20,000 nt of DNA from Thermoplasmatota archaeon (GTDB lineage: Archaea > Thermoplasmatota > E2 > UBA202 > DSCA01), in contig JAYEJS010000128.1 in the NCBI GenBank assembly GCA_034660695.1, forward strand, positions 1 through 20,000. The letters run 5' to 3'. The translations under genes were made by a program, and so were the position numbers. The notes beneath the pieces are model-generated. The model was not told the origin of the DNA. It ran no database searches and saw only the letters and a program-made list of their open reading frames with translations. The number at the start of each line of letters is the position of its first letter. The stretch's first letter is position 1. Shown here in pieces: positions 1,113 to 2,630 of this stretch.

Positions 1113-2630
1113 ACACCGGTTGATCCTGCCGGAGGCTACTGCTATTGGAATCCGACTAAGCCATGCGAGTCTAAAGGACTTCGGTCCTTGGCGGACGGCT
1201 CAGTAACACGTGGAGAACCTGCCCTCAGGTGGGGGATAACCCCGGGAAACTGGGAATAATACCCCATAAGTCTAGGATGCCGGAATGCTTCTAGGCTGAA
1301 AGTTCCGGCGCCTGAGGATGGCTCTGCGGCTTATCAGGTTGTAGTGAGGGTAACGTCCTCACTAGCCTATGACGGGTACGGGCCCTGAAAGGGGATGCCC
1401 GGAGATGGACTCTGAGACACGAGTCCAGGCCCTACGGGGCGCAGCAGGCGCGAAAACTCCGCAATGCTCGAAAGAGTGACGGGGGGATTCCAAGTGCCTA
1501 CGCTCAGCGTAGGCTGTTCAGATGCCTAAAAAGCATCTGGAGTAAGGGCTGGGTAAGACGGGTGCCATCTGTGGCAGCAGCCGAAGATTTGGCTTGCTAC
1601 TGCAAGGCATAAGCCGCCGCGGTAATACCCGCGGCCCGAGTGGTAGCCAATTTTATTGGGCCTAAAGCGTCCGTATCCGGTCTGGTAAATGCCTGGGTAA
1701 ATCGTAAGGCTTAACCTTATGAATTCCGGGTAGACTGTCAGACTTGGGACCGGTTGAGGAAGAGGGTACTTTAAGGGTAGGAGTGAAATCCTGTAATCCT
1801 TGAAGGACCACCAGTGGCGAAAGCGCTCTTCTAGGACGGGTCCGACGGTGAGGGACGAAAGCCAGGGGAGCAAACCGGATTAGATACCCGGGTAGTCCTG
1901 GCCGTAAACGATGTGGGCTTTGCATTGGGGGTTTTACGAGAGCGCCCAGTGCCGAAGCGAAGGCGTTAAGCCCACCGCCTGGGAAGTATGGTCGCAAGGC
2001 TGAAACTTAAAGGAATTGGCGGGGGAGCACAGCAACGGGAGGAGCGTGCGGTTTAATTGGATTCAACGCCGGAAAACTCACCGGGGGAGACTGCCGTATG
2101 TGGGTCAGGCTGAAGACCTTTCCCGAATAAAAGGCAGAGAGGTGGTGCATGGCCGCCGTCAGCTCGTACCGTAGGGCGTTCTGTTAAGTCAGATAACGAG
2201 CGAGACCCCTGCCCTTAGTTGCCACTTTGGAGTCCGCTCCAAAAGCACACTAATGGGACCGCTGGTGATAAACCAGAGGAAGGAGGGGGCAACGGTAGGT
2301 CAGTATGCCCTGAATCCCTCGGGCTACACGCGCGCTACAAAGGCTGGGACAATAGGTTGCAATGCCGAGAGGCAAAGCTAATCCCGAAACCCAGTCATAG
2401 TTCGGATTGAGGGCTGTAACTCGCCCTCATGAAGCTGGATTCCGTAGTAATCGCGGATCAACATCCCGCGGTGAATATGCCCCTGCTCCTTGCACACACC
2501 GCCCGTCAAGCCAGGCGAGTTGGGTTTGGGTGAGGGTCTGCTTTATGGCAAATTCGAACCCATGCTCAGCAAGCGGGGCTAAGTCGTAACAAGGTATCCG
2601 TAGGGGAACCTGCGGATGGATCACCTCCTA
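1113..2630 (+). rRNA. 16S ribosomal RNA (archaeal), containing a 45-nt insertion
   Basis: Starts ...CCGGTTGATCCTGCCGG, contains AAACTTAAAGGAATTGGCGGGGGAGCAC and TTGCACACACCGCCCGTC, ends GGATCACCTCCT. Confidence 0.98.
1568..1612 (+). other. Putative BHB-type archaeal intron inside 16S (530 loop)
   Basis: GGTGCCA^TCTGTGGCAGCAGCCGAAGATTTGGCTTGCTACTGCAAGGCATAA^GCCGCCGCGG; removal restores GTGCCAGCCGCCGCGGTAA. BHB: outer CGG/CCG, central GUGC/GCAU, bulges CA^U and AA^G. Confidence 0.7.

Follow-up and report, generated by a model that had tools for sequence, protein, structure and literature searches.

Is the 45-nucleotide (nt) segment that interrupts the 530 loop of a thermoplasmatotal 16S rRNA gene an intron that leaves the transcript, or a part of the gene that stays in it? 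The question is raised by a stretch of 20,000 nt (positions 1 to 20,000, forward strand, of contig JAYEJS010000128.1, assembly GCA_034660695.1, Thermoplasmatota archaeon), called here the window. On its + strand a 45-nt insert occupies positions 1568-1612, immediately after the nucleotide equivalent to Escherichia coli A520, in a 16S gene (1113-2629) that is otherwise intact. We conclude, with a probability of about 0.88, that this insert is a mini-intron of the short hairpin class that contains no open reading frame (ORF), and that it is spliced at a motif of the bulge-helix-bulge (BHB) type and the exons ligated.

Borders and structure of the insert

The following features define the insert and its host gene.

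1113-2629, + strand: 16S rRNA gene (Rfam RF01959), host of the insert and intact apart from it
1113-1567, + strand: 16S exon 1, ending in GACGGGUGCCA, where A1567 is E. coli A520
1568-1612, + strand: predicted BHB mini-intron, 45 nt, no ORF; no Rfam family matches it (best E = 7.6)
1613-2629, + strand: 16S exon 2, starting with GCCGCCGCGGUAAUACC
1559-1561, + strand: 5' strand of the outer helix, CGG, pairing with CCG 1614-1616 and invariant in all 16 intron variants described below
1562-1565, + strand: exon strand of the central 4-base-pair (bp) helix, GUGC, pairing with intron GCAU 1607-1610
1566-1568, + strand: 5' bulge CA^U (C1566 A1567^U1568), with the cut predicted between A1567 and U1568 from the BHB rule
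1569-1606, + strand: inner helix and intron hairpin (C1569-G1606, U1570-A1605, then a stem at 1571-1603 with one mismatch and one bulge)
1607-1610, + strand: intron strand of the central helix, GCAU
1611-1613, + strand: 3' bulge AA^G (A1611 A1612^G1613), with the cut predicted between A1612 and G1613
1614-1616, + strand: 3' strand of the outer helix, CCG

The window reads GGGTGCCA, then the 45 nt TCTGTGGCAGCAGCCGAAGATTTGGCTTGCTACTGCAAGGCATAA, then GCCGCCGCGGTAATACC. Excision of 1568-1612 yields exactly GTGCCAGCCGCCGCGGTAA, which matches the primer 515F-Y at 19 of 19 positions; the original prediction, made from the letters alone, that the insert splits the 515F site and that its removal restores the consensus is thus borne out. 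Since 515F spans E. coli 515-533, the insert is placed after A520, in keeping with the predicted location at about 520/521. The archaeal small-subunit (SSU) rRNA model of Rfam, RF01959, aligns with 1113-2629 from end to end (1470.8 bits, model positions 1-1478 of 1478), and the sole large surplus of the gene lies in the 530 loop, with 48 nt in the window versus 3 in the model. This covariance-model alignment, which had been proposed as a check, locates the surplus exactly at the insert. Owing to a repeated A, the placement 1567-1611 would give an identical spliced product; 1568-1612 was chosen because the BHB geometry fits these borders.

The junctions form the motif exactly as it had been drawn in the original prediction (CGG/CCG, GUGC/GCAU, CA^U and AA^G). 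Two 3-nt bulges lie on opposite strands with a 4-bp helix between them, and cutting between the second and third nucleotides of each bulge, followed by joining, would restore a functional 16S sequence. The motif has the strict hBHBh' form, in which the BHB core stands between an outer helix (h), here of three G-C pairs, and an inner helix (h'), here of 2 bp, which resumes after a 1-nt irregularity; the central helix contains one G.U pair. In two related inserts (L012 and L018; L numbers designate contigs) the inner helix is fully regular, with 4 and 10 bp, respectively.

The frequency of such motifs by chance was estimated with a scanner for strict hBHBh' structures with intron lengths of 12-120 nt, using 20 shuffled sequences as control. 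There were 251 matches on the + strand versus a mean of 205 in the shuffles, i.e. about 1e-4 per pair of site and length. As a detector the scanner was rejected, shuffled sequence also giving about 200 matches per strand, and it was kept for the chance rate only. Because the strict motif is common by chance, the motif by itself carries little weight; its cut sites, however, coincide with borders that were set independently by homology (p of about 1-2e-4). Thermodynamic folding alone was also rejected as evidence, the fold of 1556-1625 having a z-score of just -0.95 and an optimum that is not the BHB. We relied on comparison instead of folding because a related gene (L001) does not share the hairpin that competes with the BHB, UGCCA/UGGCA.

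Inserts at the same site and insert-free RNA sequences

Inserts at the same bond were sought in 185,579 species-representative genomes (GTDB) with the pattern GGTGYCA-N20-50-GCCGCCGCGGTAATAC. Six of the 12 matches were true 16S genes with an insert at this bond; the other six, in Halorubrum and bacteria, were rejected as chance matches. These six genomes are listed below with insert length and public label.

L001, 45 nt: archaeal rRNA contig mis-binned as Campylobacteraceae
L009, 40 nt: 'Thermoplasmatales archaeon' (genome CAZSHJ01)
L002, 43 nt: 'Methanobacteriota archaeon'
L011, 48 nt: 'Methanobacteriota archaeon'
L012, 48 nt: 'Thermoplasmata archaeon'
L003, 31 nt: 'Aenigmatarchaeota'

With nine contigs from JGI (L013-L021) and three from ENA (L027-L029), the latter reached through the protein-database route described below, inserts at locus 520 were found in 18 contigs besides the window, which makes 19 contigs with 16 distinct inserts of 31-48 nt. 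Their host 16S genes are 70-97% identical to that of the window (BLAST). The L001 contig (JALWPZ010000216.1), 3.7 kb of archaeal rRNA sequence, is publicly recorded, through a binning error, in a metagenome-assembled genome labelled Campylobacteraceae.

The outer CGG/CCG helix, the 5' bulge CA^N and the 3' bulge A(A/C)^G are kept in 16 of 16 variants. All four pairs of the central helix are present in 15 of them, where the intron partner is GCAU or GCAC and the insert ends in GCAU-AA, GCAC-AA or GCAC-AC; the remaining one, L011, has ACAC and three of the four pairs. Between subgroups the interiors of the inserts cannot be aligned, yet each forms a hairpin, so that structure rather than sequence is conserved among the 16. 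Within the subgroup of the window (seven aligned sequences, alignment A1), four pairs of the inner helix show compensatory double changes, and 95.3% of the cells are paired, versus 29-53% after a slide of the partners by 1-3 columns; the covariation score was reached by 14 of 500 shuffles. Geometry that is kept while sequence varies is the pattern predicted by selection for recognition by an endonuclease.

As had been predicted, no homing endonuclease is encoded, 45 nt leaving no room for an ORF. An ORF of this kind (LAGLIDADG type) was found neither in the 45-nt intron nor in the same-site inserts of 20-50 nt, the range to which the search at this site was limited. An apparent duplication of a bacterial-type 515 site within the intron (GTGGCAGCAGCCG, which matches 515F at 13 of 19 positions) was taken as chance, since the relatives differ there (GTGACGGCAGTC, GCAGTGGTAACG).

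A spurious antisense ORF (1526-1873, - strand) runs through the intron in frame for 15 codons, and was used as a protein-database query to find related 16S genes. Three of the matches contain the 15-residue insert and the remainder lack it. The insert-free matches include two from contigs of NCBI assembly GCA_900214305, to which L024-L026 belong; this assembly is the collection of Karst et al., which consists of near-full-length SSU rRNA from sequenced RNA (PMC12203549). The RNA-derived sequences are 1235-1440 nt long and continuous across the junction, and L026 reads GACGGGTGCCAGCCGCCGCGGTAATACC, uninterrupted and exactly the predicted ligated junction. In a neighbour-joining tree based on exons only (1180 columns), L024-L026 nest in the clade formed by the window, L017, L009, L027, L001 and L020, every DNA-derived member of which has the intron. 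The simplest reading of these sequences would be that the gene contains the intron and that the mature RNA lacks it and is continuous.

Two further observations were made on these sequences. L024 and L025 (OBEP011400554.1 and OBEP011308281.1) read GGGTCCAGCC, in which the G of GUGCCA is missing, three nt before the predicted junction; this G is present in L026 of the same data set, and the gap may have arisen in sequencing or reverse transcription or be a true variant. Antisense translations of archaeal 16S genes are numerous among the 'hypothetical proteins' of protein databases (P0001-P0019 in our searches); because the 45 nt are in frame and appear as a 15-residue insertion, spurious antisense ORFs are usable as an index for rRNA-intron surveys.

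Predicted splicing and its alternatives

Cleavage, ligation and the enzymes involved are those that we infer from the well-established BHB pathway. In the pre-rRNA, exon GUGC 1562-1565 would pair with intron GCAU 1607-1610 and form the 4-bp central helix; CGG 1559-1561 and CCG 1614-1616 would form the outer helix and the intron hairpin the inner helix, leaving two opposed 3-nt bulges. The tRNA/rRNA splicing endonuclease EndA would then cut after A1567 and after A1612, and a ligase of the RtcB type would join the exons into GUGCCAGCCGCCGCGGUAA, the 45-nt intron being probably circularised. Helix 18 and the 530 pseudoknot would fold only afterwards. The exon nucleotides of the BHB are the very ones that pair later in helix 18 (CGGG with CCCG in the Rfam consensus structure) and they flank the pseudoknot, so that the BHB would necessarily be a transient conformer of the pre-rRNA. 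G530 contacts the A-site codon-anticodon helix, and the 530 loop depends on the 507-509/524-526 pseudoknot (PMC9014874); because of this location in a decoding loop, it is difficult to see how an rRNA that kept the 45 nt would function.

Other parts of the operon, which is a complete archaeal rRNA operon on the + strand with 16S, 23S and 5S genes that all score full-length in Rfam, also contain BHB structures.

1056-1084, + strand: 5' strand of the 16S processing stem, a canonical BHB (outer helix of 12 bp, central UGGU 1068-1071, bulge GA^U 1072-1074, inner helix of 10 bp)
2640-2668, + strand: 3' strand of the 16S processing stem (inner 2640-2649, central GCCA 2650-2653, bulge AA^U 2654-2656, outer 2657-2668)
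2678-2746, + strand: weak tRNA match (Rfam)
2733-2753, + strand: 21-nt T-loop intron, placement 59/60, of the tRNA-Ala(UGC) spacer gene (2675-2767); 1-nt shifts of this placement leave the product unchanged
2865-5784, + strand: 23S rRNA (Rfam)
5809-5926, + strand: 5S rRNA (Rfam)

The cuts in the 16S processing stem are predicted after 1073 and after 2655. The spacer tRNA-Ala(UGC) is missed by ARAGORN unless 21 nt are removed from its T-loop. The BHB of this insert is relaxed: the T-stem is the outer helix, UUC/GAA with one A.A mismatch forms the centre, the bulges are AA^U and UA^U, and the inner helix is GCUGG/CCGGC. An insert is kept there at 17-21 nt in L009/L014, L017, L001 and L020. A strict BHB was rejected for this tRNA, as it takes 23 nt out and leaves a 5-nt T-loop; excision of 21 nt yields UUCAAAU, which ARAGORN accepts. 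Endonucleases of broad specificity are reportedly required for non-canonical tRNA introns (PMC5829648), and the relaxed tRNA-Ala intron predicts an EndA of this kind (epsilon2 or alpha-beta form, as against the alpha'2 form solved for Thermoplasma). The strict scan found no strict BHB in the processing stem of 23S (2846-2870 with 5776-5800). By eye this stem is BHB-like, with a 14-bp helix (GCAUAUGCAACCUG/CAGGUUGCGUAUGC) followed by GACG/CGUU, a 3-nt bulge (AAA) on the 3' strand and one of about 6 nt (U plus an A-run) on the 5' strand. Several sites in this organism thus depend on BHB processing, and the further BHB substrates of the operon imply a splicing endonuclease in the host.

Several observations weigh against splicing of the insert. 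The RNA evidence for cleavage and ligation comes from related sequences, not from the organism of the window, and a Pfam scan of 10 ORFs detected neither an EndA nor an RtcB gene in the 20 kb of the window. The outer helix has only 3 bp, and the strict inner helix 2 bp in the subgroup of the window. The minimum-energy fold of the 70-nt region 1556-1625 differs from the BHB, with -26.5 kcal/mol unconstrained versus -21.5 kcal/mol when the BHB is imposed. Finally, the exons of L024-L026 are about 88.5% identical to those of the window and about 91% identical to their nearest genomic relatives, and these sequences might belong to a lineage that has lost the intron; among RNA-derived sequences the antisense-ORF search gave none that matched an intron-bearing gene at 97% identity or more, the closest being at about 91%.

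Ligation is where splicing parts from fragmentation, in which the 45 nt would be excised at the BHB and the two halves left unligated, the 16S rRNA being then broken at the 530 loop as in some bacterial intervening sequences. Excision alone would explain the conservation of the BHB, and nothing in the window shows ligation. However, the RNA-derived 16S sequences that nest in the clade (1235-1440 nt) run continuously over the junction, it is established that RtcB ligates or circularises the products of every archaeal BHB cleavage characterised (PMC4496867), and a break in the region of the 530 pseudoknot would sever a universally conserved functional element; we regard fragmentation as unlikely. 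Slightly less probable again is a lineage-specific expansion of helix 18 that is kept in the mature rRNA and whose BHB-like fold is incidental. The local minimum-energy fold that differs from the BHB and RNA evidence that comes from relatives, not from the organism of the window, would suit a retained insert, but it is the BHB geometry alone that is conserved in the 16 variants while loop and stem sequences change freely, the nucleotides on either side of the insert are universally conserved ones of the decoding loop whereas expansions normally occur in variable helices, and the RNA-derived relatives lack it.

An assembly artefact or chimera, or a dead rRNA pseudogene, is very improbable. The sequence does come from a metagenome assembly, and a downstream gene matches Logan contigs of SRR26901928 and SRR26901924; however, the same site is filled in 18 other contigs of independent projects and assemblers, and this recurrence with divergence and compensatory changes excludes an assembly artefact, while the full-length scores of 16S, 23S and 5S and the intact processing stems also speak against a pseudogene. 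We give as little credence to a degenerate self-splicing intron (group I or II) or to an intervening sequence of the RNase III type. Group I introns are known in archaeal rRNA genes (PMC6125680), but a ribozyme core needs far more than 45 nt, no Rfam intron family is matched at the gathering threshold (the insert alone, searched up to E = 10, has its best match at E = 7.6, to an unrelated small nucleolar RNA model), and the structure is a BHB rather than a long perfect stem in place of a hairpin tip. Inspection of the insert by eye showed no C/D-box motif. Lying amid universally conserved nucleotides of the 530 loop and having BHB geometry, the insert belongs neither to expansion segments nor to RNase III-type intervening sequences.

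Known introns, similar introns in the 690 loop and primer sites

Thirteen intron loci have been listed for archaeal 16S genes (374, 548, 722, 781, 803, 901, 908, 919, 978, 1093, 1205, 1213 and 1391; Jay & Inskeep 2015, PMC4496867), and hairpin introns of less than 50 nt are a recognised class at seven of them (PMC4496867). Position 520 is absent from this list, as the original prediction had supposed; its remark that the insert is very short for an rRNA intron does not hold, such lengths not being unusual (PMC4496867). The short introns of Thermoproteales, Desulfurococcales and Aigarchaeota (PMC4496867) are like that of the window in being ORF-less hairpins whose BHB core is built from the exon-intron junctions, in interrupting conserved stretches used for 'universal' primers, and in their presumed removal by the tRNA splicing endonuclease and RtcB. 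They differ in position, the window intron lying at 520 in the 530 loop, outside the 13 loci, and in host, Crenarchaeota and Aigarchaeota in the one case and, in the other, archaea labelled Thermoplasmata or Thermoplasmatales, unclassified 'Methanobacteriota' and Aenigmatarchaeota. Unlike them, the window intron has no nearby homing-endonuclease intron that could co-convert it.

With the BHB introns of archaeal pre-tRNAs, including those at 59/60, of which the tRNA-Ala of the window has one, the insert shares the recognition motif and the predicted enzymes; it differs in lying in rRNA and in drawing the exon side of the motif from the future helix 18, not from an anticodon stem. The BHBs of pre-rRNA processing stems, a canonical one of which flanks the 16S gene of the window, are also alike in motif and enzyme, but they release whole rRNAs, whereas the motif described here removes an internal segment whose flanks have to be joined. 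The DPANN 16S insertions at E. coli 1093 (ARMAN-2; ARM-1, PMC8784108) likewise occupy a conserved site in uncultured non-crenarchaeal archaea; unlike the window intron they are about 500 bp long, bear ORFs and lie at another site, and their splicing is stated to be uncertain (PMC8784108). At the shallow vents of Milos and Vulcano, 'inserts, possibly introns' of 26-80 bp were reported in 16S clones related to Thermoplasmata and Aciduliprofundum (Price et al. 2013, PMC3705188). These resemble the locus-520 inserts in size (44 bp in one operational taxonomic unit), in their Thermoplasmata-related hosts and in coming from hydrothermal sediment; their position and structure are not given and their nature was left open. 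The comparison is by description, not by sequence, and they may be an earlier sighting of the locus-520 family.

A paper of 2022 gives 16S insertions in Crenarchaeota, Aigarchaeota and Micrarchaeota only (PMC8784108). We found no description in the searchable literature of an intron at 16S position 520 or of BHB rRNA introns in Thermoplasmata, and the 530-loop site and the host range (Thermoplasmata-like archaea and Aenigmatarchaeota) appear to be unreported there. The mechanism is already known; the location and the phylogenetic spread are noteworthy.

A sister clade (L020, L001, L013/L027 and L029) contains a second mini-intron with a strict BHB, 42-45 nt long, in the 690 loop, in the context GGGGUGAAA^UCAGC...GUCACAA^UCCUG. 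This site, which is also outside the 13 published loci, aligns with window 1786-1789, where the window has no insert. The sequence of the 690-loop intron resembles significantly that of the 520 intron with which it shares a gene: in L020 and L001 none of 2000 shuffles reached the similarity score, and in L013 3 of 2000 did. Both introns share GACUUGCC(G)UUGCAAG, after which come four nucleotides specific to the site and then AA, and most of the difference between them is in these four, which pair with the exon, as if retargeted. This comparison suggests that an ORF-less intron was duplicated to a new conserved rRNA loop. More tentatively, and with rather less than even odds, the locus-520 intron may be one of a family of ORF-less mini-introns which, without the help of a homing endonuclease, spread their copies from one universally conserved rRNA loop to another, for instance by reverse splicing or recombination.

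Additional inserts were noticed in the contigs collected here. L021 has a 54-nt insert with a strict BHB at GGCGAA^...^AGCG, about E. coli 725 (aligned to window ~1820), and L012 a 71-nt insert inside GGAUUAGAU|ACCC, in the 790 loop (window ~1885). The 16S gene of L003 (Aenigmatarchaeota) is further interrupted by 29, 61 and 161 nt. The Rfam 16S match of L016 (1398-3380) spans 1983 nt but reaches only 314 bits, with at least 10 inserts, one of them of 737 nt. Two tRNA genes of L002 (3195-3309 and 5915-6030) are about 115 nt long, with Rfam scores of 52-55 bits over a 71-position model, and probably contain introns of about 40 nt.

Elsewhere in the window, four ORFs located 3' of the 5S gene (6067-10310; 236, 518, 266 and 306 amino acids) had no Pfam match above threshold, and the exact protein of the first (6067-6777) is absent from the databases; L014 is weakly similar (about 64-70% at the nucleotide level) to parts of them, and they are therefore conserved in the family. 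A gene cluster resembling those for ribosomally synthesised and post-translationally modified peptides occupies 12080-16941, and the small ORFs upstream of it (10601-11830) could be the precursors. It comprises:

12080-13450: radical-SAM/SPASM enzyme with an N-terminal PqqD domain
13455-14495: subtilase-family peptidase
14948-15934: ABC ATPase
15931-16941: ABC-2 permease

Poor detection or mis-sizing of such an organism in 515F surveys had also been predicted. For 515F itself this is overstated: on genomic DNA 515F-Y still matches at 16 of 19 positions, because the intron ends in ...GCATAA, its 14-nt 3' end is perfect and it extends away from the intron. The 515F-806R product would therefore have the normal size; judged from the primer sites, it probably still forms, real priming by 515F being only mildly affected. 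The claim stands for reverse primers that end at the junction, 519R having a 3'-terminal mismatch on the gene (A519F matches at 14 of 15 positions), for amplicons that span position 520, which gain 45 bp, or 90 bp in the sister clade, and for in-silico coverage, strict matching to 515F, A519F and 519R failing for the locus-520 clade. Sequences of this clade may also be thrown out as chimeras or poor alignments.

In conclusion, the insert at 1568-1612, if spliced as predicted, would extend BHB rRNA introns to the 530 loop of the decoding centre, and beyond Crenarchaeota, Aigarchaeota and Micrarchaeota (PMC8784108). Its 16 covarying variants are material on how a splicing endonuclease reaches a motif whose nucleotides later refold into a pseudoknot. 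If copying between rRNA loops is real, the 520 copy would have been vertically inherited over a clade in which 16S exon identity goes down to about 89%, and it may be much older. The 520 and 690-loop paralogues are a small, tractable case for how ORF-less archaeal introns gain sites.

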